Position numbers and translations under genes: made by a program. A stretch of DNA of 64,000 nt from Nitrospirota bacterium (GTDB lineage: Bacteria > Nitrospirota > Nitrospiria > Nitrospirales > Nitrospiraceae): positions 928,001 through 992,000 of the forward strand of contig CAVPBK010000006.1 in the NCBI GenBank assembly GCA_963701855.1. Direction: 5' to 3'. Numbering within the stretch: the stretch's first letter is position 1; every line of letters starts with the position of its first letter. The notes beneath the pieces were generated by a model. The model was not told where the DNA came from. It saw nothing but the letters and a program-made list of their open reading frames with translations, and did not search any database. Shown piece by piece: positions 27,460-47,928 of this stretch.

Positions 27460-27471
27460 GGTTCTGTCGAC

Positions 27472-28776
27472 TCAATGTCTTACTGCCGGCTCCAGCTTGA
27501 TCAGGTTCGTTGCCTCCGCTTCCTGAATCAGCGTGACGTATTCAGACCGCCAATGTTTGAGCGTGCTCATAATCGGTGCCACTGATGCATCGCCGAACGC
27601 GCAGACCGTTCGGCCCTCAATGTTCTTGCATAGATCGACCAAGGTTTCAAGATCCTCCATCCGCCCCCGCTTCGCGATGATTCGGCGCATGGTTTGTACC
27701 AGCCAGGAGCTTCCCTCGCGGCAGGGACTGCACTTGCCGCAGGACTCATGATAGAAAAACTCCATGAGACGAAGTGCAGCCCATACCATGTCCGTGCCCT
27801 CTTCCATCACCGTCACCCCGCCGGAGCCGAGCATGGAGCCGGCTGCGGCAACAGATTCAAAATCGAGCTTGACCTCAAGGTGGTTCGGCGTGAGGAGTGG
27901 CGCTGACGCTCCCCCTGGGATAAAAGCCTTGAGCGGTTTGTCGGAGCGCATGCCTCCGGCTTGCTCGTAGATCAATTCGCGGAAGGTGACCCCCATCGGC
28001 ACTTCGTAGTTCCCTGGGCATTTCACATGGCCGCTGACGCAGAATACTCTGGTGCCGGTGCTCTTCGGGGGAGACCCGATCGATGCAAACCACTCAGGGC
28101 CCCGGCCGACGATGTATGGAAGGTTGGCCAGGGTCTCGACGTTGTTTACCACAGTCGGTTTGTTGTAGAGACCGTTGGTCGCCGGGAAGGGGGGCTTAAA
28201 GCGCGGCAAGCCGCGCTTGCCTTCGAGCGACTCCAGCAATGCCGTTTCTTCTCCGCAGATATAGGCTCCGGCGCCTCGATGTACCCACACATTGGCGGTG
28301 ATGCCTGCGCCCAGAATATTCGCGCCGATATAGCCGGCGGTCCGCGCTTCGGCAATCGCCTGTTCCAAGATCCTGGCTCCGAGGACGAACTCGCCCCGTA
28401 TATAAATGTAGGCGGTTTCTGCTCCTATCGCGTAACAAGCGAGCAGGATGCCTTCTAAGATCTGATGGGGATCTCGCTCAATGAGCTGGCGGTCCTTGAA
28501 CGTGCCTGGCTCGCTTTCATCAGCATTACAACAGAGGTACTTCGGGCCTATATAGTCCTTCGGGAGAAAATTCCACTTCAAGCCGGTCGGGAAGCCTGCG
28601 CCGCCACGCCCCCGGAGCCCTGATTTCATCACCATGCCGGTGACCCCGGCCGGCGGCACCTTCCCCACGACCTTGCGGAGCGCTTGATAGCCGCCTGCGC
28701 GCTCGTAATCTTGGAGCGAGCCGGTATAACCGGGCTGCATCATATTCTTGAGCAATATCAGTTCGTGCTTGGGCAT
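27472..28776 (-). CDS. nuoF: NADH-quinone oxidoreductase subunit F
   Basis: GLRGRGGAGFPTG, NADESEPGTFKDR, GAGAYICGEETAL, ESCGKCSPCREG. Confidence 0.98.
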   Translation of the reverse strand: MPKHELILLKNMMQPGYTGSLQDYERAGGYQALRKVVGKVPPAGVTGMVMKSGLRGRGGAGFPTGLKWNFLPKDYIGPKYLCCNADESEPGTFKDRQLIERDPHQILEGILLACYAIGAETAYIYIRGEFVLGARILEQAIAEARTAGYIGANILGAGITANVWVHRGAGAYICGEETALLESLEGKRGLPRFKPPFPATNGLYNKPTVVNNVETLANLPYIVGRGPEWFASIGSPPKSTGTRVFCVSGHVKCPGNYEVPMGVTFRELIYEQAGGMRSDKPLKAFIPGGASAPLLTPNHLEVKLDFESVAAAGSMLGSGGVTVMEEGTDMVWAALRLMEFFYHESCGKCSPCREGSSWLVQTMRRIIAKRGRMEDLETLVDLCKNIEGRTVCAFGDASVAPIMSTLKHWRSEYVTLIQEAEATNLIKLEPAVRH

Positions 28777-28855
28777 GGCGTTTAAGCTAAGAGCTTATAG
28801 CTGATAGTGAAAATGTCCTAACCTATTCGAGCCATAAGCCATTCGCCATATGCTC

Positions 28856-29386
28856 CTATTTCTTTGCTCCGTTGGGCTCGGGCCACATAAACGGTCCCGT
28901 CTTGAGCGAGCAGATCCCGTTTTGTTTGAGATCGGCCAGAATTCGGTCGAATGTTTGCTCTGTGAGCCGTTCATAATAGTCGTCATTGACCTGCATCACC
29001 GGCGCGGTGCCACAGGCGGCGAGGCATTCGACCACGTTGAGGGTAAAGAGTCCGTCGGTCGTTGTCTCGCCCGGTCCGATTCCAAGTTTTGTTTTGACCC
29101 ACCCGATGACCGTATCCGATCCTGCCAGCGCGCACATCAGGGACTTGCAGACTTGGAGATGAAATTTTCCCACGCGCTTGATATTGATCATCGTATAAAA
29201 CGTGGCCGTCTCATAGACTTGGGGCGGGGTCAGACGCAAGAGCCCCGCAATCTCCATCATTGCCGATTCGGACACGAAGCCTTCGTCCCGTTGCGCCAGG
29301 TAGAGCAATGGAATCAACGCCGAGCGCTTCACGGGATAGCGCGAGATAATCTCGTCAATTTCTTTCTGATACTTTTCTTTCAGCAT
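28856..29386 (-). CDS. nuoE: NADH-quinone oxidoreductase subunit E
   Basis: ATFYTM, VCKSLMC and VECLAACGTAP 2Fe-2S ligands. Confidence 0.96.
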   Translation of the reverse strand: MLKEKYQKEIDEIISRYPVKRSALIPLLYLAQRDEGFVSESAMMEIAGLLRLTPPQVYETATFYTMINIKRVGKFHLQVCKSLMCALAGSDTVIGWVKTKLGIGPGETTTDGLFTLNVVECLAACGTAPVMQVNDDYYERLTEQTFDRILADLKQNGICSLKTGPFMWPEPNGAKK

Positions 29387-29499
29387 CTGCTTTTCCTGTC
29401 CACCCGTTCACGGTGAGGGAACAGAGAGTGCCCTTTGCTGCGCGCGTCCAACGAGTGCCTTCCGAAGGCCGCGCGTTGCGCGAGCGCATTCTCCTTCCC

Positions 29500-31251
29500 T
29501 CACCTATCACATTCCCCCATCACAACATCGTAGGTTCCGAAGATCGTGATGATGTCGGAAATCAGGTAGCCTCGCGCCATATGGTCGAAGGCCCCCATGT
29601 GTACGAATGACGGCGCACGAATCTTCAGCCGGTAAGGGCGGGGGCTGCCGTCGCTGACGATAAAAAATCCCAACTCGCCCTTGGGGGCCTCGGTTGCGCA
29701 ATAGGTCTCGGCCTTCGGCGGCTTGATGCCCTGGGTATAAATGATGAAATGATGGATCAAGCTTTCCATGTCCCGCATGACCAATTCCTTGGGCGGCGGG
29801 ATATATTGCGGCGCCTCGGCCATGATCGGCCCAGCAGGAAGCTGATCGAGACATTGTGCAATGATCCTGGCGCTCTGCCGCATTTCTTCCATGCGGATCC
29901 AGTATCGGTCATAGGTGTCTCCGTTCCTGCCGATCGGTACGTCCCAATCGACTTTGTCGTACACGCCGTAGGGTTCGGCCTTGCGGACATCGTAGGCGAC
30001 GCCCGACCCTCGCAAGACCGGCCCGGTGCAGCCGAAGCTGATCGCATCTTCAGCTGAGAGCAGGGCCACGTTCTTTGTGCGGCCGAGCCAGATGCGGTTC
30101 GATGCGATGAGCGAATCGTATTCCTTGACCTTCTCGGGAAAGATATCGAGGAACGCCTTCATCCGTTGGACCAACTCGGGGGTGAAATCGCTATCGACAC
30201 CGCCGATACGATAGTAGTTCAGGGTCAGGCGGGCCCCACAGAGCTTTTCGAACATGTCCAACAGTATTTCGCGCTCCCGGAAGGTCCAGAAGAACACGGT
30301 CATGGCGCCGATATCGAGCGCCTGCGTACCGAGCCAAAAGAGGTGTCCGATGATGCGTTGCATCTCGGCCACGATGGTCCGGATATATTCGGCCCGGATC
30401 GGCACCCCGATCTCGAGGAGTTTTTCCACGGCACGCACGTACGCGTAGTTGTTGGACATGGCACAGACATAGTCGAGCCGGTCCGTGTGCGGGATGATCT
30501 GCATGTAGGTCAAACCCTCGGACAACTTTTCGACACCTCGATGCAGGTAACCGAGGTCCGGTGTGGCCTTCACAACCCGTTCACCGTCCAATAAGAGCAC
30601 GACACGCAGCACTCCATGCGTACTCGGATGCTGCGGCCCCATGTTCAGCAGCAGTTCCTCTTTCCGTTGGGAAGCGGGCACGTCGGTCTCGGCGCGATAG
30701 AAAACTTTCTGCTCCTCAGGGACTTCGCTCTCGATGACGTCGACAGAGGCCTCATCGAATCTCGGAATAAAGTCGAATTGGCTGCGCCAGCCACGCCCTT
30801 CGGTCGGAAAATCCTTTCTCAACGGGTATCCCTCGGTATAATCCTCCGGCATCAGAATGCGCCTGAGATCGGGGTGGCCGGAAAAATTAATGCCCATCAT
30901 GTCGTACACTTCTCGTTCCAGAAAGTCGGCGCCCTTCCAGACTCCAGTGACCGACGCAATCGTCGGATCATCCTCGGTAATACGCGCCTTGAGACGAAGA
31001 CGCTGCTGAAGGGGAAGCGAGTGCAAGTGGTAGACGACTTCGAATCGCAGCTGATCTTCGGGATAATCGACTGAGCAAATATCGGTGAGATGATCGAAGG
31101 CTGCCTCCGGCGCATCGTGCAAGTAGCGAGCAATCTCCAGCAGACGCGTAGCGGCCACAGAGACAGAGGTCTCGGCACGTGCAGTATCGACGCGGATCGC
31201 GAGGATCGCGTCCGGGAATTTCGTCTTCAGGCTGTCGAGCAGTGCTTTCAT
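29500..31251 (-). CDS. nuoCD: NADH-quinone oxidoreductase fused subunit C/D
   Basis: NuoC motif EREVYDMMGI.F.GHPDLRRILM followed by NuoD NMGPQHPSTHGVLR, ending GECDR. Start reassigned to ATG 31251. Confidence 0.96.
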   Translation of the reverse strand: MKALLDSLKTKFPDAILAIRVDTARAETSVSVAATRLLEIARYLHDAPEAAFDHLTDICSVDYPEDQLRFEVVYHLHSLPLQQRLRLKARITEDDPTIASVTGVWKGADFLEREVYDMMGINFSGHPDLRRILMPEDYTEGYPLRKDFPTEGRGWRSQFDFIPRFDEASVDVIESEVPEEQKVFYRAETDVPASQRKEELLLNMGPQHPSTHGVLRVVLLLDGERVVKATPDLGYLHRGVEKLSEGLTYMQIIPHTDRLDYVCAMSNNYAYVRAVEKLLEIGVPIRAEYIRTIVAEMQRIIGHLFWLGTQALDIGAMTVFFWTFREREILLDMFEKLCGARLTLNYYRIGGVDSDFTPELVQRMKAFLDIFPEKVKEYDSLIASNRIWLGRTKNVALLSAEDAISFGCTGPVLRGSGVAYDVRKAEPYGVYDKVDWDVPIGRNGDTYDRYWIRMEEMRQSARIIAQCLDQLPAGPIMAEAPQYIPPPKELVMRDMESLIHHFIIYTQGIKPPKAETYCATEAPKGELGFFIVSDGSPRPYRLKIRAPSFVHMGAFDHMARGYLISDIITIFGTYDVVMGECDR

Positions 31252-31339
31252 AATTCTTGTTCGCGGGATGGGCGCGCCTCGCGGGAAAAGCGCGATTTGC
31301 TCGTCGCGCACGTCCCGCTTCCCTCGCCTGTCTCGCGGT

Positions 31340-31819
31340 TCATCTCACAAACACCTTTTCCCGCTGAATCTTTTCCTGTAATTTCAGTAACCCATCGAGC
31401 AATGCTTCCGGACGGGGTGGACAGCCCGGCACATAGACATCAACCGGAATAATCTGATCGACGCCTTGAACCACCGCGTAACTATTATAGTGGTTACCTG
31501 ATGTGGCGCAGGAGCCCATAGAAATGACATATCGCGGTTCCGGCATCTGGTCGTAGATACGGCGGATCACCGGCGCCATCTTGCGCGTCACCGTGCCGGC
31601 AATGATCATGAGGTCGGCTTGCCTTGGCGAGGCTCGAAAGACACCGGCGCCGAAACGATCCAAGTCATACCGCGACGACACGGTCGCAATCATTTCGATG
31701 GCGCAGCAGGCCAAGCCAAACGTCATCGGCCACAATGCCGACTTTCGAGACCAATTCACGACCGCATCCAGATTGGTCGTCAGAATATTCGCCTCAAACT
31801 GTCTCTCCAGAAAGCTCAT
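31340..31819 (-). CDS. nuoB: NADH-quinone oxidoreductase subunit B
   Basis: [26 protein letters not shown]. Confidence 0.98.
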
Positions 31820-34218: not shown

Positions 34219-36939
<2,721 letters not shown>

Positions 36940-37115
36940 GATATTGTCGCTCGGAGCGAACGCCGACCTCCCTAAAATTATTTGACGCAGTATACAACAT
37001 CTTTTCTCTGAATCCTATAACAAGGCAGGGGCTCAGACTCTCCATAGTTCATTCTTACTTGGCCTAAACCCTCAGCCTTCAGCCTTTTTCGGACTGCAGG
37101 TCTCAAATCGTCGTC

Positions 37116-37145
37116 TTGACAGGCCTCGTGGCGGTCCATTAAACT
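37116..37145 (+). promoter_or_regulatory. Putative sigma70 promoter of the RAPP-leader operon
   Basis: TTGACA (37116-37121), 18-bp spacer, TAAACT (37140-37145), ~30 nt before leader 1. Confidence 0.6.
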
Positions 37146-37174
37146 TCGATCAAGTCACACTGGGTCGTTTACCG

Positions 37175-37480
37175 ATGAACCAAGTCGCCCTCAAATTCCT
37201 GTCGATCGTTCTGGTGATCTGTGTCCTTTCCGTCGGCGGATTGGCTCAGGCGCAGTCGGTCGAACATGCCGGACACCATGCCCAGCATCAGGCTGCCACA
37301 CATGGCACCCTGCTCTGCTCTTGGATGTGTGCCGCCGGAACGATTCTCGATTCGGCGGTGGTCACGTTTCAGGCCGAACTCAGCCCTATTGCTTTCATCA
37401 CACTCCCCCATTCTGCACAGCCTTCCATTGTGGCATGCAGAACTTCACCCAGCCGCGCCCCTCCGTCTTTCTTTCTATAG
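37175..37480 (+). CDS. Putative metal-sensing arrest leader peptide 1 (DUF2946/CruR-like)
   Basis: Signal-like N-terminus, HAGHHAQH, HGTLLCSWMC, 41-aa spacer, RAPP four residues before the stop. Confidence 0.8.
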   Translation: MNQVALKFLSIVLVICVLSVGGLAQAQSVEHAGHHAQHQAATHGTLLCSWMCAAGTILDSAVVTFQAELSPIAFITLPHSAQPSIVACRTSPSRAPPSFFL

Positions 37481-37602
37481 TTTTCGTCGATCATCGGCTC
37501 GCAACGAGAGCCGCATTCCGTCTCTCGTATGATCCACTGAGTGGGTTGTAAGGCAGCCGGATAGGGACGATTCTTAATAGAGAGAAAAGGAACAGCGTCA
37601 TA

Positions 37603-38718
37603 ATGGTACGTAAACGGTTCATACTCGGATTCATTCTCAGTCTTACACTCGTTGTCTTCTCGTGGCCCGGCGCCCAGACCGCACAGGCCTCGTGCGGATC
37701 CGTCACTTGCTTTGTCGTGATCGGGTCGGCGCAGCAAGTCTCGCCGGAAGGTCTCCTCACCGTGAATACGTTTTATAACTATACGAAGCAGTCCACCTTG
37801 CCGCCTGGGGGAAGTGGAATTATCCCGGGTGTTGACGTCGCGAATAGGAATATGATCCTCGACCATCACAAGGAGATTCGTACGATTACACAAATGGTGA
37901 CCTTGGATTTGAACTATGGCATCAGCGATCGGCTCGGCATCGAAGTCGCCATTCCCTACAAGATGCTCGAACATCACCACATTGATGGGCTCGGTGAGGA
38001 CAACGGCGGTGCCGGTGTGGCGACCAAATTCACCGATTCCGGCATTGGAGACATTTTTGTCAATCTGAAGTACAACGCGTTGCCGACGCTGACGAGTATG
38101 GTCGTCACCGGATTTGGCGTCTATCTGCCCACCGGTGAAAATAAAGCCGCAGACCCCAACGGCGGGGTCTTTGAACCGACGGCCCAGCTGGGACGAGGGC
38201 AGGTCGGCCTCCAGGGATCACTGTACGGGACCTATGAGCTCATTCCTCACCGGTTAAACCAGTTCGCCACCGCCAGTTATCGCCACACGTTCCAAAACAA
38301 CTGGGGGTATCAATTCGGCGATCAGTACGACTTGAGTACGGGCGCCAATCTCGTTGCGGCTCCGTGGCTCGTGCTGAACGCGCAGCTCAATTACCGGTAT
38401 ATGGTGCATGACTCCTGTAAATGCTCGCTGTCTCAGTCGCTAGTTCCAGGCGACCTAGGCTTCCCGGGCGAAGCAGCCCTCGTTGACGGTACCATCAAGA
38501 CTCGACCGGTGCCCACCACCGGGTCAACCTTTTTAGCCTTTACGCCCGGATTTTCCCTGAATATGGGAACATTATTGCCGGAGCAAAAGTGGGCCGACAC
38601 GTTGCAGGCCTATTTCTTTGCCCAGATTCCGGTGCAGGCGGACTTCAACGGGAACCTGCAGCAGAGCACAAGTTTCATGGCCGGGCTCACGAAGTATTTT
38701 AATTTCACCAAGTCCTGA
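37603..38718 (+). CDS. Secreted, probable outer-membrane beta-barrel protein with Cys/His motifs
   Basis: Signal peptide ending AQA, then SCGSVTC. HHKE and EHHH motifs. SGIGD and YLPTG segments resemble MetA-pathway/transporter barrels. Confidence 0.6.
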   Translation: MVRKRFILGFILSLTLVVFSWPGAQTAQASCGSVTCFVVIGSAQQVSPEGLLTVNTFYNYTKQSTLPPGGSGIIPGVDVANRNMILDHHKEIRTITQMVTLDLNYGISDRLGIEVAIPYKMLEHHHIDGLGEDNGGAGVATKFTDSGIGDIFVNLKYNALPTLTSMVVTGFGVYLPTGENKAADPNGGVFEPTAQLGRGQVGLQGSLYGTYELIPHRLNQFATASYRHTFQNNWGYQFGDQYDLSTGANLVAAPWLVLNAQLNYRYMVHDSCKCSLSQSLVPGDLGFPGEAALVDGTIKTRPVPTTGSTFLAFTPGFSLNMGTLLPEQKWADTLQAYFFAQIPVQADFNGNLQQSTSFMAGLTKYFNFTKS

Positions 38719-38749
38719 CCGTCAGGACGCGGGCCGAGGAGGAGGATCT

Positions 38750-39304
38750 ATGAGCAAGCGTACGGTATTGGCACTCGGGATAGTGATGGGGCTGACATTC
38801 GTTAGTCTCTGGCTCCCGACGATCTCGGTCTGGAGCATGGGCTCGCGAGTCCCGACGGTCGGAATGCAAGCTGAGGATTTTCGCTTGCCCGATCTGGCAG
38901 GCAAGGAACAGAGCCTCAGCCAGTATCGCGGCAAGATCGTGCTCCTAAACTTCTGGGCTACCTGGTGCAAACCCTGCACAACAGAAATGCCGGCCATGCA
39001 AACCATTTATGACAAGCTGCGAGACAAAGGCTTCGTGGTCCTCGCCGTCAACGAGTTAGAGGACGACGCCAAAGTGCGCGAGCACATCAAGCAGTATGGC
39101 CATACATTCCCGGTCCTGATGGATCACGACAACAAAGTCGCCAACCAGTTCGGCGTGTTCGGATTGCCCGTGAGCGTCTTCATCGACCAAGAGGGCCGAG
39201 TCCAGGAATATATCAAGGGCGGGCTGCTCACCGAACAGAAGATCGAGGAAACCGTCGCACGGATTCAGAAACAGGAGCCGGTAAAGGCAGCGGCTCTTCG
39301 ATAA
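38750..39304 (+). CDS. TlpA/ResA-family thiol-disulfide reductase
   Basis: LNFWATWCKPCTTEMP, cis-Pro GLP, N-terminal anchor. GGAGG RBS before ATG 38750. Confidence 0.92.
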   Translation: MSKRTVLALGIVMGLTFVSLWLPTISVWSMGSRVPTVGMQAEDFRLPDLAGKEQSLSQYRGKIVLLNFWATWCKPCTTEMPAMQTIYDKLRDKGFVVLAVNELEDDAKVREHIKQYGHTFPVLMDHDNKVANQFGVFGLPVSVFIDQEGRVQEYIKGGLLTEQKIEETVARIQKQEPVKAAALR

Positions 39305-39310
39305 AGACTT

Positions 39311-39610
39311 ATGAACCCTAGGACTCGACAATTTGTAATCGGAGGGTTCGCGCTCTGGCTTGTGGCGCTCAGCGGAATTGTGTACCCGCAGCTCACCACC
39401 CACATGGGGCAACATGAGCATCACAACGCAACGACTCACGCCACCGCACTCTGTTCATGGCTCTGCATCGCGGCCGACGCGGTCGAGGGCACTTCAGTGT
39501 CCTTCATTCCCGTTGAACTAGTAGACTCTATCGAACAGGAGTCCCTCAGACCACAGATCAGTGCTCTCATTAGTTTTCAGCCACCAGCACGTGCCCCGCC
39601 CTTCGCATAA
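39311..39610 (+). CDS. Putative metal-sensing arrest leader peptide 2
   Basis: Hydrophobic N-terminus, HMGQHEHH, HATALCSWLC, 41-aa spacer, RAPPFA-stop. Confidence 0.8.
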   Translation: MNPRTRQFVIGGFALWLVALSGIVYPQLTTHMGQHEHHNATTHATALCSWLCIAADAVEGTSVSFIPVELVDSIEQESLRPQISALISFQPPARAPPFA

Positions 39611-39785
39611 TTCCTCCTCCTTTCCAATCTTCAGAGCTTGTCAGTGATAGCGCTCACAACTTCTTTCCCCTGACAGAGGTTGCGGTCGGTCATCGATCTG
39701 ACTTGGGGGAAGGGAAGCAGCTTGACTGAAATCGCGCCTGCATGTCGCATCTTTGAAATAGAATCAGACTGAGGAGAATGAATCG

Positions 39786-39920
39786 ATGAGACACAGTCGG
39801 TCTTCGACTCGATGGTTAGGGACATCTTTCCTGACGTTCTTTTCCCTTGGTCAGTTGAAGGAAGAGACAAGGACTGAGCCTAAAGCCGAGCATACATTCA
39901 CACCGGTGGTGCTCAAGTGA
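39786..39920 (+). CDS. 44-aa ORF coupled to tonB, possibly a deletion remnant
   Basis: GAGGAG RBS at 39771-39776. Reads MRHSRSSTRWLGTSFLTFFSLG...PVVLK. Its TGA overlaps the tonB GTG (GTGA). Confidence 0.45.
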   Translation: MRHSRSSTRWLGTSFLTFFSLGQLKEETRTEPKAEHTFTPVVLK

Positions 39921-40813
39921 CACTCAATACGGATTGGCGGTATCGCGTACAAGGATGGGTGGTGTCCGCGGCTTTTCACGGCCTTGCGCTCACCGTGGCC
40001 CTTGGGCTCATGGCTCAGGTCAAACCGGCAGTGCCGAAAGAGGTGTTTACGTGGGACGTCGCCTTGGTCGAACCAGAACGGATTCCAGAAACACGTCAGG
40101 CTGAATTCACGCCAACCCAGGAACCTGCAAAACCAACTCCGCGTCCGTCAACTCCCACCCCCAGACAGCCCCAAATGGTCACCCGGGAAGTGCGGCCACG
40201 CGAGGTAACACCGATTGTGCAGCGCGAAATCCGCCAGGTGGTCGAGACGAGTCAGCCGACTCAACAGATGGTGGCGGTGCACACGAGTACCGAGGCAGTC
40301 ACGCCGGTCCAGGAACAGCCTCCAGCAGAGGTTCAGCAGACCACGCAGGCTGTGGTTGAGTCGATAGCCCCTGTCGTTCAGCATGAAGGAGTGACTGCTG
40401 AACCGGCGATTAGCTCAGCGCCGGAGACTGCTGCTGCGAGCGACGCCAAACCGACTGAATCTGTCGCACAGGAGTCCGCACCACAAGTAGCAATGGCAAC
40501 CCGTCCGACTCCCGTGGTCAAAGTCGATCATGGCTGGTTGGCCGAATCGCTGAGGCGGAGACTGGCTGAGATCAAACGCTATCCAAGCACCGCGCGCCTC
40601 AATGGCTGGGAAGGGAAGGTCGTGCTGCGCGCAGTCATTCGAGCCGATGGCCATTTGTCAGAGGTAAAGGTGCATCGCAGTTCCGGCTATGAGTCACTCG
40701 ATAATGCGGCCATAGAAGCCATCCGCTTGGTCTGTCCGCTCCATATGCATCAACCACTCGGTACGCCCGAAGTAGCGGTGTATGTGCCGATGGTCTATAG
40801 CCTCGGAAGTTAG
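39917..40813 (+). CDS. tonB: Energy transducer TonB
   Basis: TM SAAFHG (SxxxH), Pro/Glu/Thr-rich linker, YPSTARLNGWEGKV and SSGYESLDNAA. Confidence 0.92.
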   Translation: MTLNTDWRYRVQGWVVSAAFHGLALTVALGLMAQVKPAVPKEVFTWDVALVEPERIPETRQAEFTPTQEPAKPTPRPSTPTPRQPQMVTREVRPREVTPIVQREIRQVVETSQPTQQMVAVHTSTEAVTPVQEQPPAEVQQTTQAVVESIAPVVQHEGVTAEPAISSAPETAAASDAKPTESVAQESAPQVAMATRPTPVVKVDHGWLAESLRRRLAEIKRYPSTARLNGWEGKVVLRAVIRADGHLSEVKVHRSSGYESLDNAAIEAIRLVCPLHMHQPLGTPEVAVYVPMVYSLGS

Positions 40814-40833
40814 CCGATAGGAATTGATGTCCT

Positions 40834-41181
40834 ATGTCTCTGCTGTCAGGCCAAGGATTGAAGATGGTCAAGCTGGCGTTGGGCCTTCTAGGCATGGTGA
40901 CTATGCCAATCTGGGCTGAGGAGAAGCAGGATGTGATGAGCGAATCGGCACGAGCGGCGCGTATCCAGCAACTGCAGCGGGATCGCGCGAAGGTCGAACG
41001 GAAATTGCGTCAACTCCGTTCGCACCCGGAAGGCACAGCTCGATTATCCGCTCCCAGAACCGAACTCTCGGACCAACCGACGAGAAGTCTGAAGGAATCG
41101 CTCGAATCCTTGCCAGGAGTGAGTGCGCGGCAAAGTTTCAGTGGGCGCGATGTACCCTTATCCATTCGTGGCTTGAAGTGA
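40834..41181 (+). CDS. Small secreted protein resembling the N-terminal plug region of the neighbouring TonB-dependent receptor
   Basis: QPTRSLKESLESLPGVSARQ...LSIRG versus QPTRTMKESMESLPGVVLRQ...IMIRG in the receptor. Confidence 0.65.
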   Translation: MSLLSGQGLKMVKLALGLLGMVTMPIWAEEKQDVMSESARAARIQQLQRDRAKVERKLRQLRSHPEGTARLSAPRTELSDQPTRSLKESLESLPGVSARQSFSGRDVPLSIRGLK

Positions 41182-41189
41182 GGTGCCCT

Positions 41190-42476
41190 ATGGTCGAACG
41201 GAAACTCAGAATTAGGCGATTAGTATGGATGGTCGGAATTGGGATCAGTACCGTCTCGCTCGCGTCAATGGCGCTGGCTGAGCCGGATCAGGCATGGCGA
41301 TTCGGCCCGAAACTGACGACTGATCACAAGGTTCGGGCCATGGTAGGTCCTTCTGTCAGAATCGACGACGAAGGTCGTATCGCACTTGCCTGGGTTGAAG
41401 AGGACAAGGACACTCGCACGGTGTTCTATGCCGGAACTAAGAGGCCGGAAGGACCGATTGGCGCTCAGGTGAAAGTGAATCAGACGAATGAGGCGCCCTA
41501 TATGCGACAGGAAGCACCAGCGCTAGCGGTGGTTGGAGACGACGTGTTTCTAACATGGGCATTAACCCATCCCAAACTGACCACGGACAAGCCGTTTTCG
41601 AACGAATTGAGGCTAAGCCGGTCCATCGACGGCGGCAAAACATTTCTGCCCTCCATCCTGGTGAATGATGACGAGCAGGTCATCGGCCACAGTTTTGACT
41701 CGATCCACGTCGCTCCTGACGGCGAGGTGCACATGTCCTGGATTGACGGGCGGGAAGGCCGGAGGGAACCCGACATATTCGTGACCCGTTCGAAGGATCA
41801 CGGTCGCACCGTCGCGAAGAACCTCAAAGTGGACGAGAATGCCTGTGTCTGTTGCCGGACCGCTCTCACTACTGGGCTTGACGGGACGCTCTTTCTGGCC
41901 TGGCGCAAGGTGCTCCCTGGCGATCTACGCGAAACGGTGGTCGCGCGTTCCACAGACGGGGGGGGCACGTTTTCTTCGCCGGTAATCGTGGGGCACGATA
42001 AGTGGGTGTTCCCCGGCTGTCCGCATCGACCTGCCTCAATCGGAACGGATCGCCTGGGGCGTCTCTATGTCGTTTGGTATACGGAAGGCGAAGATGACAC
42101 GCCGGCGATCTATGTCGCCTACTCAGATGATCGTGCAAGCTCGTTCTCCTCCAAACACAAATTGAATCTGTCCAAGGGAACCTTTCCCGACCACCCACAA
42201 ATGGCCGTTGATCCTGAGGGCCGGCTTGTCATCGCCTGGGAAGAACAATCGCCGGTTCGCCGCGAAGTCGTCGTGAGTGTCTCACTCGATCGTGGACAGA
42301 CATTTAGTCCGCCGCAGAAATTGAATGACAAGAAAGGCCAGACCCCGGCCGTCTCGATAAATTCGAAGGGGCTCGCTGCCTTGGCTTGGATGGAACACGC
42401 GATGCCGGCTCATCGCATGGTGGTCCAGACCATTCAACTCCCCCCCATAAACGTCCTCGCGAGGCAAGAGCCATAA
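41190..42476 (+). CDS. Periplasmic BNR/Asp-box (sialidase-like) beta-propeller protein
   Basis: Repeated SxDxGxTF boxes, ACVCCRT and GCPH motifs, signal peptide. GTG 41178 is an alternative start. Confidence 0.85.
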   Translation: MVERKLRIRRLVWMVGIGISTVSLASMALAEPDQAWRFGPKLTTDHKVRAMVGPSVRIDDEGRIALAWVEEDKDTRTVFYAGTKRPEGPIGAQVKVNQTNEAPYMRQEAPALAVVGDDVFLTWALTHPKLTTDKPFSNELRLSRSIDGGKTFLPSILVNDDEQVIGHSFDSIHVAPDGEVHMSWIDGREGRREPDIFVTRSKDHGRTVAKNLKVDENACVCCRTALTTGLDGTLFLAWRKVLPGDLRETVVARSTDGGGTFSSPVIVGHDKWVFPGCPHRPASIGTDRLGRLYVVWYTEGEDDTPAIYVAYSDDRASSFSSKHKLNLSKGTFPDHPQMAVDPEGRLVIAWEEQSPVRREVVVSVSLDRGQTFSPPQKLNDKKGQTPAVSINSKGLAALAWMEHAMPAHRMVVQTIQLPPINVLARQEP

Positions 42477-42477
42477 C

Positions 42478-43026
42478 GTGGATGTGTTGGTGAAACGAGT
42501 TGTGATTGCAGCAATGCTCTCTCTCATGAGCATCGGGTCGCCTGGTCCCACACTTGCCGGCGATCCCTTTGTCGCGCTCAAAATGAGCCGGCTGCCGGCC
42601 GGCAGCATGGCGGCGCCCTTTGAACTTACGACGCTGGACGGCACTATCGTGAAGTCGAACGAGTTCGCTGGGAAGGTCGTGCTGGTGAATTTTTGGGCCA
42701 CATGGTGCGGGCCCTGCAAAGAGGAAATGCCGTCACTGGCGCATTTACAGAAGCAGTTAGACCCAACACAATTTGCCCTCCTGACCGTCACGACGGACCT
42801 GCAGCGCCATGGTATCACACACTTTCTGGCTCAGTTGGGAGTCAGTCTGCCGGTGCTCTTCGATGAAAATCAGGAAGTATCTCGGTCCTTTATGGTGCGC
42901 GGCCTCCCGACTACGATCGTGATTGCACGGGATGGCACGTTGGTCGGGCGAGCGGTCGGGCCTCGCGCCTGGGATAGTCCAGAGGCAGAGGCGGCGATGC
43001 GGCAGGTGATGGAGCACGGGAGATGA
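42478..43026 (+). CDS. TlpA/ResA-family thiol-disulfide reductase
   Basis: VNFWATWCGPCKEEMP, GLPTT, GPRAWD. Confidence 0.92.
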   Translation: MDVLVKRVVIAAMLSLMSIGSPGPTLAGDPFVALKMSRLPAGSMAAPFELTTLDGTIVKSNEFAGKVVLVNFWATWCGPCKEEMPSLAHLQKQLDPTQFALLTVTTDLQRHGITHFLAQLGVSLPVLFDENQEVSRSFMVRGLPTTIVIARDGTLVGRAVGPRAWDSPEAEAAMRQVMEHGR

Positions 43027-43331
43027 GAAAGTGTTTCGTCCCACTGGCTCTGGGCATCGCGATGCTGTACCTGACGCTATCGGTCACTGCCATGGCCTGC
43101 CTCTTGGCACACAAGAGCCAGCCACGCTCAGCCCATCATCACACGGGCGGAATGACGCATTCTTCTCTGTGCGCCTGGGCCTGCCATGCCAACCCAACCG
43201 TTGACCTTCCGGTAACCACCCTGCAGACGCAGCCCGTTCCACTCGTGTCAATGCTGCTGTTGGTTGACTCTTCCGTCTCGTCGTTCCTCTCCCAGCAATC
43301 GACCCGATCCCGCGCGCCTCCCCAATCGTAG
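43023..43331 (+). CDS. Putative metal-sensing arrest leader peptide 3
   Basis: Hydrophobic N-terminus, AHHH, HSSLCAWAC, 42-aa spacer, RAPPQS-stop. ATGA overlap with the upstream tlpA. Confidence 0.8.
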   Translation: MRKCFVPLALGIAMLYLTLSVTAMACLLAHKSQPRSAHHHTGGMTHSSLCAWACHANPTVDLPVTTLQTQPVPLVSMLLLVDSSVSSFLSQQSTRSRAPPQS

Positions 43332-43451
43332 CTTCGCATCCACTTCAACGCAACATTCATCAACCGTCTCTCTGTGTGGGCAGCGCTATGAACTTTGTAG
43401 CCTGTCACCGGCTTGAAGGCGGTGTGTCGTGTCTATTTTCCAAGAAGGAGC

Positions 43452-45812
43452 ATGGCTATGGTGTCGTTCAAGATATTTACGCAAATCATTGTGGCAATCA
43501 CAGCACTCGAAGGCATTGCCGCTATGGATTTCGTCGCGCTGGCACAAGACTCCGCCCCGGCAGAAGCCGGGCAACAAAGTCCACGGGAACAACAACTGCG
43601 TGAACAGCTAAAAGGAATCTTGCAAGAGCTGGAGGATCTCCAGAAGAGTCATGAAAGTACGTTGCCTCCGGCCGAACGGCCCAAGACAGTGACCGAGAAA
43701 GTTGCGCCAGATCAATCGGAAGGTGCGGGAGCAATTCCAGAATATGAGTTGTCCAATCTCAGCATCGTCAGCAAACGCGTTTCCAAGCGACCGGAGGGTG
43801 TTGCGTTGTCCGCAACCATTCCAGCCGAAACGGATTCTCAGCCGACGAGAACGATGAAGGAGTCGATGGAATCGCTCCCCGGCGTGGTTTTGCGCCAAGC
43901 GAATGGACCGCGCGACTTCAGCATCATGATTCGTGGCCAAGGCGCCAAGACGACCTTCGCCATTCGGGACATTAAAATATATGAAGATGGATTTATCCAG
44001 ACGCAATCAGATGGCCTCTCACGACTTGACATTCAGGATCCCTGGTTCATGCGCAGCGTCGAGGTGACTCGCGGCGCGTCGTCCTCCTTGTACGACAACT
44101 ATGCGCTCGGCGGAATGGTGCAGTTCAGGACTAGACGAGGGAGCGACATCAATGGAGTGGAAACCTTCTTGTCCGGCGGGTCCTTCGGGTACCAAAAGTA
44201 CGGTCTCGCCGTCGGGCAAGAAACGGACAAAGTTGACATCGCGATGTTTGCGAGCCAGGTCATGGAAGACGGCTTTATCCAGAACAGTAATTACAATACC
44301 CAGACGCTCAACTTCAATTTTCGCTTCAAGGTGGATGACAAGCAGAATTTCTACTTCAAGGCGATCTCCAACTGGCTGAATACGAAAGTGCCGACCAGAC
44401 TTACCCAATCGCAGTTTATCACCAACGAACGGCAGGCAGGCGGAGCGCAAACGACATGTACGCCCGGCACCTACAACCCCGGTTGTGCCAACGCGCTCTT
44501 GCTCAATCAAAGCCGCGTCGATCATCGCACCATCTTGGGGGGTATGTACGAGCGGCAGCTCAATGCGAATACCGTTCTGACGATTGAGGCCGACTATGAC
44601 GTCAAAGATATCCAGCAAACATTTTCGCAGATCTCGGAGAATACAAATCCCAACTATAAGACCTATAGCGATTTGCGACACGATGGCCAACTTGGAGAGA
44701 TGCCGCTCAAGAGCTATGTCGGCTTCTTTGTGAATGAGATGGACCAGAAAGCCAACCAGTTTCAAAATCTTGCAGACGGTTTTGGAACGAAAGGAACCTT
44801 GCTTCAGAACTCCCGTGGATCGATTTTCAACATTGGCGCCCGCTTCCGCGAAGAACTGGAGTTCGTGCCGACTTGGACCCTGGCGGCGGGGCTTGGGTTC
44901 GAACAGTCCCGCGTCAGCACGCAGGCGACTAACTATAATAATGCTGGCGCGGTGGCCTCTCGTGCCAATGCGAGTCTTGATTACTCAAACTGGGCCCCGG
45001 AAATGTCGCTCACCTGGAAACCAGCGGAAGCCTATCGACATTGGACTCGGGCCTCGACGGGGTACGGTATCCCACAAATGAGCCAGCTCTTGCGCGATCC
45101 TATCACCGGGCTTCCCGGAACCAACTTTAATCTGAAACCGCAGAAGAACCTCAACATAGAAATCGGCACGGAGTCCAAGCTCCACAAGACCCTCACCGTC
45201 CAACTTGTCGGGTTCTTGACCTTCTTCAAAGACGAGATTATCACGCAGACGGTATCAGGGAATAACACGGCTTCCATCAATGCAGACTCCTCCAAGTACA
45301 TGGGCATTGAAGCCTCCTATGATTGGCGACCGATGACAGGCCTGCGACTCTCCGGTGCCTATACACACATTGATGCCAGATACGTTAATTTCAGCGACAA
45401 AAGTTCGGTGGGTGGAGTGCCAACGGTGTTTGTGCGTGACGGGAGGCAAGTCCCCAACGTTCCGACCGATGTGGTAAATTCCAAAGTTGCTTATGACCAT
45501 GCGCCCACCGGGTGGGGCGGCTGGCTCGAAGGCAGTTATTATAATAGCTATTTCCTAAACAACAGCAACACGTTCAGCATTCCATCCTATGTGGTCGCGA
45601 ATGTGAATGTGCACAAGAGTTTCGAGCTGGAAAACTCCTGGTTCCGATTCGCTAAGTTGTATCTGGAGGTGGACAACATCGCGGATAAGAAATACGCCGC
45701 ATCCGGCGCAGTGATCGGAGGTGAAACTGCCGCCACTGCTTCGGGCAATCAGGCTTTTTTCGCTGGCTATGGCCGGGCCATCTATGGCGGGGTGACGCTG
45801 GGGCTGTTCTAG
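43452..45812 (+). CDS. TonB-dependent receptor
   Basis: Plug motifs (LPGV, IRG, VEVTRGASSSLY...GG), barrel strands, DNIADKKY, terminal F. AAGGAG RBS before ATG 43452. Confidence 0.95.
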   Translation: MAMVSFKIFTQIIVAITALEGIAAMDFVALAQDSAPAEAGQQSPREQQLREQLKGILQELEDLQKSHESTLPPAERPKTVTEKVAPDQSEGAGAIPEYELSNLSIVSKRVSKRPEGVALSATIPAETDSQPTRTMKESMESLPGVVLRQANGPRDFSIMIRGQGAKTTFAIRDIKIYEDGFIQTQSDGLSRLDIQDPWFMRSVEVTRGASSSLYDNYALGGMVQFRTRRGSDINGVETFLSGGSFGYQKYGLAVGQETDKVDIAMFASQVMEDGFIQNSNYNTQTLNFNFRFKVDDKQNFYFKAISNWLNTKVPTRLTQSQFITNERQAGGAQTTCTPGTYNPGCANALLLNQSRVDHRTILGGMYERQLNANTVLTIEADYDVKDIQQTFSQISENTNPNYKTYSDLRHDGQLGEMPLKSYVGFFVNEMDQKANQFQNLADGFGTKGTLLQNSRGSIFNIGARFREELEFVPTWTLAAGLGFEQSRVSTQATNYNNAGAVASRANASLDYSNWAPEMSLTWKPAEAYRHWTRASTGYGIPQMSQLLRDPITGLPGTNFNLKPQKNLNIEIGTESKLHKTLTVQLVGFLTFFKDEIITQTVSGNNTASINADSSKYMGIEASYDWRPMTGLRLSGAYTHIDARYVNFSDKSSVGGVPTVFVRDGRQVPNVPTDVVNSKVAYDHAPTGWGGWLEGSYYNSYFLNNSNTFSIPSYVVANVNVHKSFELENSWFRFAKLYLEVDNIADKKYAASGAVIGGETAATASGNQAFFAGYGRAIYGGVTLGLF

Positions 45813-45846
45813 CTTCTCGGGATATGTGGATCAGTCCTAGTCTGAG

Positions 45847-45873
45847 ATGAGGGCGTCCTTGAGACGCCCTCAT
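45847..45873 (+). terminator. Stem-loop after the receptor gene
   Basis: ATGAGGGCGTC-CTTGA-GACGCCCTCAT, a perfect 11-bp stem with only a weak U-tract. Confidence 0.45.
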
Positions 45874-45932
45874 TCAACGGGTGCCCTCGAACAACACAAT
45901 AAGTCCAACGACAACACAAAGCGAGGTACATC

Positions 45933-46112
45933 ATGGACAAACAACTGCTCAAAATCAATGAAGCGGCGGTGGCCTTAAATGTAAGCCGCTGGACAGTCTA
46001 TCGGTGGGTCGAAGAAGGGAGGTTGAGCGCCACAAAAATCGGCAAGCAGAGCTTGCGCGTGATCGGGAACTCGGTCGACAAGCTGATCTCCGAAAATAGG
46101 ACTGATCACTGA
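45933..46112 (+). CDS. Excisionase-like (HTH_17) DNA-binding protein, 59 aa
   Basis: Below the ORF-track cutoff. MDKQLLKINEAAVALNVSRWTVYRWVEEGRLSATKIG..., GAGG RBS. Confidence 0.8.
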   Translation: MDKQLLKINEAAVALNVSRWTVYRWVEEGRLSATKIGKQSLRVIGNSVDKLISENRTDH

Positions 46113-46180
46113 GCGTCCGCTACGTGTGTGCGGGGGATAATATCTGATGCAGGTGCTGGAGGAAGGATTACGGTGTATTG

Positions 46181-46607
46181 ATGGATGGACTCAAGGAACT
46201 CGTCGAGTACGGCGTCATCGGGCTTTTGCTAGGGCTGAGTTTCTGGGCCATCGGGGTGGCGAGTGGAGCGTTGGCTGTTCTATCGGCAGGTGGATATCAG
46301 GCAGTTTCCCACGCTGGATCTGTGCGAGATGACGTTGACCAAGCGGCTAGTGGTGATCGGTACCGTGGCGGCCAATGCGCCCTATATCGGACTGCTCGGA
46401 ACAGTGCTCGGCATTATGCTCACGTTCCATGCGATGGGCACATCCGGCGCATTGGCGGTGGCATCGATCATGATCGGCTTGAGCCTTGCGCTCAAGGCCA
46501 CCGCGGCGGGGCTACTGGTCGCCATTCCTTGCGTGGTCATGAACAACGTGCTCCGGCGTCGGGTGAGCGAACTGCTCGCGCAGTACAAGGCACAGCATGG
46601 ATCGTGA
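46181..46607 (+). pseudogene. exbB: ExbB, frameshifted
   Basis: MDGLKELVEYGVIGLLLGLSFWAIGVA joins VERWLFYR...APYIGLLGTVLGIM...ALKATAAGL if one extra base near 46262 is removed. Confidence 0.8.
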
Positions 46608-46816
46608 GCTGAATCAAATCAATGTTATCCCGCTGGTCTATGTCATTGTTGGTGCTCCTGGTCATCGTGTTGACCACCGCCACCTTCATTACGGCGGGCC
46701 ATGGCCATGCCGTGGTGACAATTGACGTAGGGAAGGTCAAAGCTGATCAACTGGTCGGAGCGGTGAATGGGGTCAAAGGTGACGTCTGGCATTGTACCGG
46801 ACGTGCGATGAAGTAG
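46597..46816 (+). pseudogene. exbD: ExbD 5' fragment, frameshifted and fused to an unrelated C-terminal fragment
   Basis: MDRELNQINVIPLVYV / LVLLVIVLTTATFI, with the conserved Asp read as Tyr and a +1 shift. It then switches to HAVVTIDVGKVKADQLVGAVNG..., possibly an HMA-like tail. Confidence 0.7.
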
Positions 46817-46969
46817 GTGCGGTGCGAAGGGGATCAACGCAAAAGGCGGTCGACGATGAGCAAATGGACTGTGGTGTTGTGAAGGTGCAGGGAAATGGGT
46901 GAAAATCCGACAGCGACTGCACCGCCTGAGCCAAAAGATGGCGAATGCACATGGCAGAATAGGTGAATC

Positions 46970-47218
46970 GTGGAGCCGGTGTTACTCCGCATCCAGGAAA
47001 CGGCGAAGTTGTTAAAGGTCAGCAACTGGACGATCTACCGATGAATCGAGGAAGGCCGTTTGCGAGCTACCAAGATTGGCCAGGGCAGTTTGCGGGTGTT
47101 TCGATCATCGGTGGACGGGCTTATCGCGGGGGCTCAGATCGATCACCGAAAGGCTCAGCGTGGTTCGCCCAGCACCGTGACTCCCGTGCGGGTCACGGGC
47201 CCTGAAAAGAAAAAGTAA
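46970..47218 (+). pseudogene. Second excisionase-like HTH copy with an in-frame stop
   Basis: VEPVLLRIQETAKLLKVSNWTIYR*IEEGRLRATKIG. TGA at 47042 sits where the paralog has Trp. Confidence 0.75.
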
Positions 47219-47415
47219 AAAGCCGTAGAAAACGGGTCCGGTAGTTGCCCCCTCTCTTCCGGACCTGCCTGGGGACTCGGAGCCAACCTCCCTCCAAGTC
47301 CCCGGCCCTTCGGGAGAGGAATTGAAAGTCGTCATGAAAAATGAGAGTTGTAAATATTTGCCGCTGATGTATGATCCTGTCAGATGACACGTTCACCATC
47401 ACACAAGGAGGAGTT

Positions 47416-47715
47416 ATGAGCCGAGTGAAAGCCGTCGTTATGGCAGTCGCTGTCTGTGGTCTTATCGCAGGAGGCATGACGAGTCCAGTATTCGCGGGTG
47501 AAAATGGGCATGTCAAGGAAGTAATCAAGCATGCCAAGGAAGGCATTGCGCACGAGAAAGAAGCCATCACGCATCTGGAAGAAGCCATAAAGGGAAGCGA
47601 GAATGCCCACGCGAAGGAAGCGCTCGAACATGCGAAGGAATCGCTGAAGCATGCGGAGGAATCGCTGGCTCATGCCGAGCAAGCCTCGCAGAAACCGAAA
47701 GGCAAAAAGAAGTAG
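47416..47715 (+). CDS. SmbP-like periplasmic small metal-binding protein
   Basis: Signal peptide, then eight His in two runs with 7-residue spacing on predicted helices. GGAGG RBS. Confidence 0.8.
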   Translation: MSRVKAVVMAVAVCGLIAGGMTSPVFAGENGHVKEVIKHAKEGIAHEKEAITHLEEAIKGSENAHAKEALEHAKESLKHAEESLAHAEQASQKPKGKKK

Positions 47716-47928
47716 CTTACGGAATCTCGCCAGCTTGCATCGACTCAGTTCCAGGTAGTTTCTTTCTTAGACTCACCGCGCGGCGTGTCTTATCAAGCGC
47801 CGCGCAATGAGTGCCTTACCCCTCGTTGCTCATGAACATTTCTGCTGTAATTGCTGATATCTGGCTGAAGCGAGACGGGCGGGAAAAGCGCGACTTGAAG
47901 CACGAATACTTCGGCCTTCAGACTGCCT

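Follow-up and report, generated by a model that had tools for sequence, protein, structure and literature searches.

Tandem RAPP-ended leader peptides in an envelope gene cluster of Nitrospira-type genomes, possible metal-sensing regulators of uptake

The window analysed here (the whole 64-kb stretch, positions 928,001 to 992,000 of contig CAVPBK010000006.1 in the Nitrospirota assembly GCA_963701855.1) contains a run of envelope genes at 37116-47715 on the + strand, which was delimited from the open reading frame (ORF) list and from Pfam and NCBIfam matches. Three of its genes encode short leader peptides that end in the arrest motif Arg-Ala-Pro-Pro (RAPP), and these leaders, together with the genes behind them, are the subject of this report. 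A first-pass annotation made from the sequence had described a co-oriented run of promoter, leaders, barrel, thioredoxin-like, TonB, plug-like, propeller, receptor, helix-turn-helix (HTH), exbB/exbD and SmbP-like elements as a putative envelope cluster for metal acquisition, and all of these elements are present on the + strand in the order and at the positions given below. The flanks are housekeeping genes (secA divergent upstream and the nuo operon further out; a GDSL esterase and an ATP-binding cassette (ABC) transporter downstream), so the cluster is chromosomal with no obvious mobility. The features are as follows.

37116..37145, + strand, sigma-70-like promoter match TTGACA-18-TAAACT (10/12 matches), 5′ of leader 1
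37175..37480, + strand, leader 1, 101 amino acids (aa): CSWMC, 41 residues, RAPP, SFFL, stop
37481..37602, + strand, conserved leader 1-channel spacer of 122 nt; RAPP and tail codons able to pair with the Shine-Dalgarno region of the channel gene
37603..38718, + strand, outer-membrane channel, predicted to be 12-stranded (COG4313 / Phenol_MetA_deg, FapF-like fold; PF13557)
38750..39304, + strand, TlpA/ResA-like periplasmic thiol:disulfide oxidoreductase 1 (TlpA1), WCKPC (AhpC-TSA, 109 bits)
39311..39610, + strand, leader 2, 99 aa: CSWLC, 41 residues, RAPP, FA, stop
39611..39916, + strand, leader 2-tonB spacer of 306 nt, ends conserved and middle variable
39917..40813, + strand, tonB, with N-terminal anchor and Pro/Gln-rich linker (TonB_C, 55.9 bits; TIGR01352, 56.4 bits)
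40834..41181, + strand, plug-only mini-protein, 115 aa (Plug, 24.3 bits versus cut-off 23.9)
41178..42476, + strand, Cys-rich beta-propeller of BNR/sialidase fold with signal peptide (BNR_2, 35.4 bits)
42478..43026, + strand, TlpA-like thiol:disulfide oxidoreductase 2 (TlpA2), WCGPC (Redoxin, 86.3 bits)
43023..43331, + strand, leader 3, 102 aa: CAWAC, 42 residues, RAPP, QS, stop
43458..45812 (ORF opens at 43413), + strand, TonB-dependent receptor, likely start ATG 43458 behind AAGGAG
45933..46112, + strand, HTH_17 (excisionase/MerR-like) DNA-binding protein, 59 aa (Pfam, NCBIfam)
46178..46607, + strand, exbB with a frameshift near 46258 (TIGR02805, 131.4 bits versus cut-off 135.35 for the 114-aa piece)
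46597..46816, + strand, exbD remnant, N-terminal ~30-47 residues, frameshifted and fused to the 3′ end of a lost gene for a protein like the heavy-metal-associated (HMA) domain
47060..47218, + strand, remnant of a second HTH_17 gene, with a translation like the product of 45933-46112
47371..47715, + strand, SmbP-like His-rich small metal-binding protein with signal peptide (PF16785, 31.2 bits versus cut-off 29)

The genes are closely packed at several junctions. TlpA1, whose ATG at 38750 stands behind a strong Shine-Dalgarno sequence (AGGAGGAGG), ends 7 nt before the start of leader 2, the stop of TlpA2 overlaps the start of leader 3 by 4 nt, and the stop of the plug-only gene overlaps the start of the propeller gene. 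The promoter from which the run had been read as a single operon exists as a sequence match, but TTGACA-type matches occur across the region at chance frequency (7 versus 5.8 ± 2.4 in shuffled sequence), and the single-operon claim rests on it. The SmbP-like gene, which had been counted as part of the run, stands apart from it: about 550 bp of degenerate DNA lie between, the gene has a promoter-like match of its own at 47348-47375, and its association with the cluster varies in other genomes. No known RNA element (Rfam, E <= 0.1) was found in 36800-47900. A weak terminator-like hairpin followed by a T-run lies at 39815-39835 within the leader 2-tonB spacer, and only some of the aligned loci have one.

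Leaders 1-3 are paralogues with 30-33% mutual identity and a common plan: a hydrophobic N-terminus (maximum 15-residue hydropathy 2.1-2.9 at residues 4-10, a putative export signal judged from hydropathy only), a His-rich stretch, a C-x-W-x-C motif, a linker of 41, 41 and 42 residues, RAPP (residues 94-97, 94-97 and 97-100 in leaders 1, 2 and 3) and a tail of 4, 2 and 2 residues before the stop. The residues invariant among the three are M1, H35, T42-H43, L47-C48-x-W50-x-C52-x-A54, P71 and R94-A95-P96-P97. Only four of the window's 520 stop-to-stop frames with 60 or more codons contain R[AG]PP, and three of these are the leaders, with the motif within the last 16 residues. Codon-position statistics over 11-24 orthologues of each leader gave ratios of nonsynonymous to synonymous differences (pN/pS) of 0.18-0.23, which indicate purifying selection and, therefore, that the leader ORFs are translated. 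The first-pass view of these small ORFs as leaders of a regulatory type is supported; the RAPP motif and its fixed spacing, which are the mechanism-bearing feature of the cluster, are absent from that annotation.

The leaders belong to a large family. A profile built from the three matches 1059 proteins at E <= 0.01; among the 120 best of these, the organism names that are given are all Nitrospira, Nitrospiraceae, Nitrospirae or Nitrospirota, none has a Pfam domain, CxWxC and RAPP occur together in 119, and the spacing is 41 in 118. An exhaustive HMMER search yielded 249 clusters (50% identity) at E <= 0.001, and RxPP is found near the C-terminus of 139 of the 150 best representatives (RGPP 75, RAPP 57, RSPP 4, RDPP 2, RPPP 1), with a Cys-to-Arg spacing of 41 in 136 of the 139 and 42 in the other 3. 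In 135 of these 139, the motif and the stop are 1-10 residues apart. The sequence between the motifs is poorly conserved, though the distance from CxWxC to RxPP is fixed, and the His cluster H31, H35, H38 and H43 is invariant or nearly so. An Atlas look-up of leader 2 returned unnamed clusters, Nitrospirota being the commonest, and the nearest named leads were DUF2607 and DUF2946 clusters at 0.93. Sub-threshold matches to DUF2946, the domain of the copper-responsive leader CruR, were obtained for 15 of 38 family members, the best with an E of 7e-4, and they end at the RAPP (C-terminal) end of the profile. The leaders also share with DUF2946 proteins and with the copper-responsive leader CutF the hydrophobic N-terminus, the conserved Cys motif (at the CutF spacing and not the CruR spacing) and a Pro-containing C-terminal motif, which is RAPP as in CruR. 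The analogy to DUF2946 loci drawn in the first-pass annotation is thus real at the level of domain plan, and the leaders, judging from sequence, constitute a family of their own that is probably distantly related to DUF2946 and would work like CruR and CutF.

Synteny across Nitrospira, which the first-pass annotation had proposed as a check, takes the form of a fixed frame with exchangeable contents. A genome scan with 24 leader-2-type sequences, which biases the sample toward genomes carrying this type, located 34 related loci, all on contigs of metagenome-assembled genomes titled Nitrospira, Nitrospiraceae or Nitrospirota, save two bins with other labels and one untitled. The frame consists of secA on the - strand, then leader 1, channel, TlpA1 and leader 2, then a variable part, and finally a GDSL gene on the - strand, an ABC gene and a permease gene. 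In one form, the variable part contains TonB, plug-only protein, propeller, TlpA2, leader 3, receptor, HTH protein, ExbB and ExbD (13 loci and one cut contig); in a second form, it contains a channel paralogue with 47% identity, a fourth type of leader and a lipoprotein of 500-546 aa; in a third, almost nothing. A pattern scan of the 34 loci and the window found 88 leader-like ORFs, from one to five per locus and of five sequence types, all of them on the strand of the cargo genes and directly ahead of them. The same chromosomal slot holds shuffled cassettes of leader plus cargo across the Nitrospira-type loci.

Several details of these loci may be recorded here. The fourth leader type (CAWHC, 42 residues, RGPP) precedes the lipoprotein, which has no Pfam match, at L012:11527-13542 and L013:8107-10050, in loci without the TonB/receptor module. 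A fifth type (CAWAC-42-RAPP-SVxFxLIG) precedes HMA-like proteins in locus L013 that score below threshold (18.5 and 22.0 bits versus a cut-off of 24.8). At L018:15501-18851, exbB and exbD are split by a cassette that encodes a leader of the fifth type, a 380-aa tetratricopeptide repeat (TPR) protein and an SmbP-like protein; the slot is thus seen to accept insertions even inside exbBD. A small ORF at L011:19838-20212, with a hydrophobic start, H-C-x3-C-x-H, a longer linker and a C-terminal RAPP, may represent a more distant type of leader. Lastly, secA (34219-36939 of the window, - strand) is divergent from leader 1 (37175, + strand) in every related locus that reaches that far, so that the leader points away from it; secA is the classic target of regulation by an arrest peptide.

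The cargo of leader 1 is the channel and TlpA1. The channel matches PF13557 with 27.3 bits (cut-off 22), and its structural model, of medium confidence (predicted local distance difference test (pLDDT) 71), was matched by Foldseek to FapF (5o65, E 4e-14) and the COG4313 channel Pput2725 (4rl8, E 8e-13), with a template-modelling (TM) score to target of 0.68-0.74 (0.69 for 4rl8) at 10-14% sequence identity; a PDB sequence search with the channel gave no match. By family membership and predicted fold, the protein is assigned to the COG4313 / Phenol_MetA_deg outer-membrane channels with a 12-stranded barrel. Whereas Pput2725 and FapF have been connected with hydrophobic compounds or with the secretion of amyloid, the Nitrospira channel occurs together with a TlpA gene and an arrest leader and begins, in its mature form, with an invariant S-C-G-x-x-x-C-F, the CxxxxC pair Cys31 and Cys36 being present in 34 of 34 aligned sequences; a C-K-C pair is not conserved, and channels of the barrel-1 type carry HH and HxH motifs. 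Both TlpA1 and TlpA2 match thioredoxin-fold families and carry CxxC, below the subfamily cut-offs (ResA subfamily 146.9 bits versus 170; TlpA 96.8 bits versus 230).

Behind leader 2, the plug-only protein consists of a signal peptide, a coiled segment and the first ~40 residues of the plug of a TonB-dependent receptor, and is a paralogue of the N-terminus of the receptor gene downstream (45% identity over 55 aa, E 3e-13). A frameshift artefact of a larger gene was considered and ruled out, and the ORF is accepted as a conserved gene, because it is full length with the same C-terminal end, SIRG(SK), in 13 of 13 aligned loci that carry the TonB/receptor form (type A). The propeller bears C223-x-C225-C226 (CVCC, 223-226) and C281-P282-H283 (GCPH, 280-283), the two motifs picked out in the first-pass annotation, and they are invariant in 30 of 30 aligned relatives; the named Cys, Pro and His residues persist also in a 43%-identical paralogue. 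Its model is good (pLDDT 83.5, predicted TM score 0.84), and matches only generic sialidase/lectin propellers with TM scores of 0.5-0.6; a PDB sequence search returned chance-level matches only. The periplasmic relay for which the first-pass annotation had enlisted such proteins is a conjecture.

Behind leader 3, the receptor has both domains of a TonB-dependent transporter (PF07715 Plug, 49.1 bits; PF00593 barrel, 118.1 bits), and its Shine-Dalgarno sequence and start are conserved among relatives. The HTH_17 gene follows the receptor in 12 of 12 loci that reach that point, with a second copy in L001, L013 and L020. The lesions that had led exbB and exbD to be called remnants are confirmed in the window; in other loci, exbB is intact (L001, the closest relative, and L011; 141 aa), and exbD is intact in L011 but truncated in L001, where it is likewise fused to the 3′ end of the lost HMA-like gene. 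An intact 98-aa HMA-like gene of L013 (22.0 bits versus the cut-off of 24.8) is the counterpart of the lost gene whose 3′ end is fused to the exbD remnant.

The direction of transport is suggested to be uptake by the presence of TonB, the receptor, ExbB/ExbD and the outer-membrane channel, as the first-pass annotation had it, and by the lack of any match to an efflux-pump family in a scan of 17 ORFs of the run. The same scan matched no copper-specific receptor, CopC/D, PCuAC or multicopper oxidase family and, in agreement with the first-pass annotation, no siderophore-biosynthesis family. The Fur box that it had not seen is likewise missing from the window at up to three mismatches, a test with almost no power (0.01 occurrences expected by chance).

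The class of regulator to which such leaders would belong is already in print, in the form of CruR, CutF and a survey of upstream ORFs (uORFs) with RAPP or RGPP. CruR of Bordetella pertussis (Bp2923, a DUF2946 protein) has CXXC, 45 residues and then RAPP three residues before its end, and its gene precedes the TonB-dependent transporter gene bfrG and controls it in response to copper: transcription of the transporter gene is maintained by the stall at RAPP, and copper sensed through CXXC relieves that stall, whereupon Rho terminates (PMC9426467). DUF2946 genes are 'systematically' in first position with a Cys-RAPP distance of 45 ± 1-2, and cruR homologues occur mostly in Proteobacteria with AhpC_TSA-type genes among their neighbours (PMC9426467). 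The Nitrospira leaders are alike in being small exported uORF proteins with a Cys motif, a linker of fixed length and RAPP 2-4 residues from the stop, with long spacers after the leader, a TonB-dependent transporter downstream on the same strand and AhpC_TSA-type neighbours; they are unlike CruR in that three copies occur in one run and that the named relatives are Nitrospira or Nitrospirota. CutF, encoded in cutFOG of Rhodobacter capsulatus, has a Sec signal, a CxxxC copper motif and a Pro-rich C-terminus (PMC9973294); when copper induces stalling, a stem-loop in which the cutO Shine-Dalgarno sequence is hidden melts (PMC9973294; bioRxiv 10.1101/2025.02.05.636593), and the stalling motif is a Pro repeat that needs elongation factor P (EF-P) (bioRxiv 10.1101/2025.02.05.636593). 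The Nitrospira leaders share with CutF the Sec-type N-terminus, CxxxC and a Pro-containing C-terminal stalling motif, and the leader 1 spacer could form a pairing analogous to the stem-loop. They differ in that the motif is RAPP rather than a Pro repeat, that the pairing has no support from covariation, and that the cargo is uptake machinery, whereas the cargo of CutF is a detoxifying multicopper oxidase induced by copper.

No arrest cores are more potent than RAPP and RGPP, and both are depleted in the proteomes of bacteria, Nitrospirota among them (mean bias 0.14 and 0.09); CruR stalls with both Pro codons in the P and A sites (PMC12992588). Small secreted RAPP/RGPP ORFs are enriched upstream of genes for TonB-dependent receptors and thioredoxin-domain proteins, and among those upstream of DsbA and thioredoxin-domain genes is one in which the two members of a conserved Cys pair are predicted to be near each other (PMC12992588). 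The monitors ApdA, ApdP and those of the SecM type, together with the uORFs of that survey, resemble the Nitrospira leaders in their small size, secretion, C-terminal R-A/G-P-P and same-strand downstream gene (PMC12992588; PMC10951233); these monitors sense Sec/YidC activity, however, and the survey, in the parts searched, gives classes and not the Nitrospira leader family (PMC12992588). The string 'Nitrospir' has no occurrence in three supplementary files of PMC9426467. No description of the family, of its tandem and internal use or of its cargo was found in the literature on DUF2946, on CruR/RAPP and on Nitrospira or comammox copper, some supplements lying outside the search.

Taken together, these observations make it fairly probable that the run is a chromosomal envelope uptake cluster, so far seen only in Nitrospira-type genomes, built of three modules of sensor leader plus cargo in which metal-sensing arrest leaders, most likely responding to copper, gate the genes behind them. 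Each leader would be a short exported peptide whose nascent chain bears a metal site formed by the His-rich stretch and C-x-W-x-C, 41-42 residues upstream of RAPP. The ribosome would stall with the two Pro codons of RAPP in its P and A sites, and whether the stall persists, and for how long, would be set by metal occupancy of the sensor site, located by then in the translocon or immediately beyond the exit tunnel. The stall would then decide the expression of the genes behind the leader, either by uncovering a ribosome-binding site (as in CutF or SecM) or by denying Rho access to the C-rich 3′ end of the leader (as in CruR), so that uptake might be switched on under metal scarcity. Module 1 would supply a passive 12-stranded outer-membrane channel and a TlpA reductase; module 2, TonB, the plug-only mini-protein, the Cys-rich periplasmic propeller and the second TlpA; and module 3, the TonB-dependent receptor, the small HTH protein and ExbB/ExbD, both broken in the genome of the window. 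Copper is the best guess for the metal by analogy, because both characterised relatives are sensors of copper, CxxxC is also the motif of CutF, and SmbP and HMA-like genes travel with the cassettes. TlpA-type reductases are also partners of copper insertion into ScoI/CoxB.

Either manner of coupling has some features in its favour. The region of the leader 1 spacer folds, as a single sequence, with a minimum free energy of -59.9 kcal/mol (z -2.79), and the purine-rich Shine-Dalgarno region of the channel gene can pair there with the S-F-F/S-L codons and the final nucleotides of the Pro-Pro codons. RNAalifold retained this pairing in 19-21 of 22 loci, and a pairing of the leader 3 RAPP codons with the receptor start region in 10-12 of 12 loci; the leader nucleotides engaged in these pairings are precisely those that a RAPP-stalled ribosome would occupy. 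As for Rho, the 10.6-kb run has C-rich and G-poor 78-nt windows nowhere but in the TonB linker and at the 3′ end of each leader, a distribution compatible with loading sites that a stalled ribosome could occlude, or equally with Pro, Ser and Ala codons.

Masking of the Shine-Dalgarno sequence was also examined by covariation, and this support had to be rejected. Duplex energies of the arrest segment with the start region of the next gene, computed for 21, 14 and 12 loci of leaders 1, 2 and 3, revealed no covariation: same-locus, cross-locus and shuffled energies are indistinguishable, the values for same-locus and cross-locus pairs being -17.1 and -17.3, -13.7 and -13.5, and -15.1 and -15.1 kcal/mol, and mononucleotide shuffles being nearly as stable (-15.65 for leader 1, with 32% of shuffles as good). 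Because this control is negative, the pairing conserved in RNAalifold is to be regarded as compositional and not as proof. The spacer folds of leaders 2 and 3 are no better than those of shuffles (z +0.90 and +0.20).

These results on coupling, and the following ones, weigh against the proposal of metal-sensing arrest leaders. None of the three leaders in the window matches PF11162 (DUF2946) at E <= 0.1, and 0 of 92 cluster representatives reach the DUF2946 gathering score (best 18.1 bits versus 23.7). The leaders depart from CruR in having CX3C with Trp and a His cluster rather than CXXC, in having a fixed linker of 41-42 residues rather than 45, and in the internal position of leaders 2 and 3, each next to a TlpA gene, whereas genes of the CruR type come first in their operons. 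The His-rich part could bind nickel, cobalt or zinc equally well. The nearest characterised relatives of the receptor are PqqU (9c4o) and YncD (6v81), with an E of about 1e-38 and 135 bits over ~625 residues, and no OprC/NosA-type copper-receptor model is among the 17 NCBIfam families that it matches at E <= 0.1; of the thiophilic-metal or copper uptake postulated in the first-pass annotation, the uptake machinery has been located and the receptor does not point to copper. PqqU and YncD are the best sequence matches without being functional equivalents by the available model: PqqU model NF041535, the best NCBIfam match of the receptor, scores 191 bits versus an equivalog cut-off of 1200, and the receptor is longer at its N-terminus by about 130 residues. 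Finally, neither exbB nor exbD has an intact frame in the window, exbB being frameshifted and exbD both frameshifted and cut short near residue 47, so that decay of module 3 may be under way in this lineage.

Part of this evidence may be accommodated by supposing that the leaders monitor thiol redox state or oxidative folding, the disulfide state of C-x-W-x-C, under the influence of periplasmic oxidants or TlpA, tuning the RAPP stall while the PqqU-like receptor imports a non-metal or chelated cofactor. The tight junctions of TlpA1 with leader 2 (7 nt) and TlpA2 with leader 3 (4-nt overlap) agree with this, as does the kinship of the receptor with PqqU and YncD; the invariant N-terminal Cys pair of the channel and the four invariant Cys of the propeller would be clients of TlpA, and the DsbA- and thioredoxin-associated uORFs, one with its conserved Cys pair, offer a precedent (PMC12992588). 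A disulfide switch, however, has no need of the conserved His cluster, a feature characteristic of metal sites; copper is what the closest characterised leader proteins sense, and the SmbP and HMA-like neighbours point to metals; we regard a redox monitor as rather improbable. The His-rich sensor segment also speaks for a further alternative, in which the architecture is as proposed and the ligand is another metal (nickel, cobalt, zinc or chelated iron), or the cluster takes up a metallophore or a cofactor that cannot be read from sequence. CutF-like clusters with His-only motifs are linked to nickel and cobalt genes (PMC9973294), membership in the SmbP family says only that a protein is small and metal-binding, and the scan of the run named no copper-specific family. 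Set against this are the invariant Cys pair, which matches the CxxxC of copper-sensing CutF, the part that TlpA-type reductases play in copper insertion, the lack of a siderophore-biosynthesis family among the 17 ORFs and, weakly, that of a Fur box; this alternative too is unlikely.

The small proteins might instead be ordinary mature metallochaperones, periplasmic or membrane-anchored, in which RAPP has no regulatory role, since they are predicted to be exported, are rich in Cys and His and are conserved as proteins, and their stalling is a prediction. It would then be difficult to see why a motif so strongly avoided in Nitrospirota should recur, as RxPP, in 139 of the 150 best representatives, 1-10 residues from the stop in nearly all of them and at an invariant distance from the Cys motif across a poorly conserved intervening sequence, or why every copy should stand directly upstream of cargo on the same strand. 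We consider this explanation very improbable, and prefer arrest leaders that sense a metal.

If arrest leaders of differing sensitivity are indeed used in series, a bolder scheme can be imagined, which we put forward as speculation that is more likely wrong than right by a wide measure. Three to five differently tuned leaders (CSWMC, CSWLC, CAWAC, CAWHC; RAPP or RGPP) would open successive tiers of acquisition as metal grows scarcer, from the channel to TonB and the propeller and then to the receptor, with the tiers encoded by exchangeable cassettes in the slot beside secA. The propeller and the plug-only protein would be a new TonB-linked periplasmic component for handling copper(I), and the whole would be the main high-affinity copper route of Nitrospira, including comammox.

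Copper supply limits nitrification in drinking-water filters and shapes the competition of comammox Nitrospira with ammonia oxidisers. A 2026 paper on copper in nitrification covers PcoB/CopB, CopCD, CusCBA and CopA, and its main text has 0 occurrences of TonB, thioredoxin and SmbP (PMC13374858). Uptake induced by metal scarcity, if it is real, would be a missing piece of Nitrospira metal physiology and would provide an expression marker for metal limitation. For the study of arrest peptides, sensing of the CruR/CutF type would be extended to a family that Pfam does not capture and to another phylum, with tandem and internal use of leaders in one run and with new classes of cargo (the COG4313 channel, the Cys-rich propeller and the plug-only protein). 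The invariant 41-residue spacing would constitute a testable geometric constraint on the path of the signal from a ligand outside the tunnel to the peptidyl-transferase centre.

Elsewhere in the window, a gene at 5027-5740 (+ strand) resembles acyl-homoserine-lactone synthases, matching the TraI/LuxI models of NCBIfam with an E of about 1e-21, below the cut-off; it adjoins a gene for an autoinducer-binding regulator of the LuxR/SdiA/TraR type at 5816-6616 (- strand), making a quorum-sensing pair in a Nitrospira-type genome. At 2162-4874 (- strand), a response regulator of the NarL/MctR type lies beside two adjacent MctS/UhpB-like histidine kinase genes. The nuo operon for NADH:quinone oxidoreductase (16943-31819, - strand) encodes NuoC and NuoD as one fused protein, and its NuoG-like subunit of 888 aa has a match to formate dehydrogenase alpha as well.

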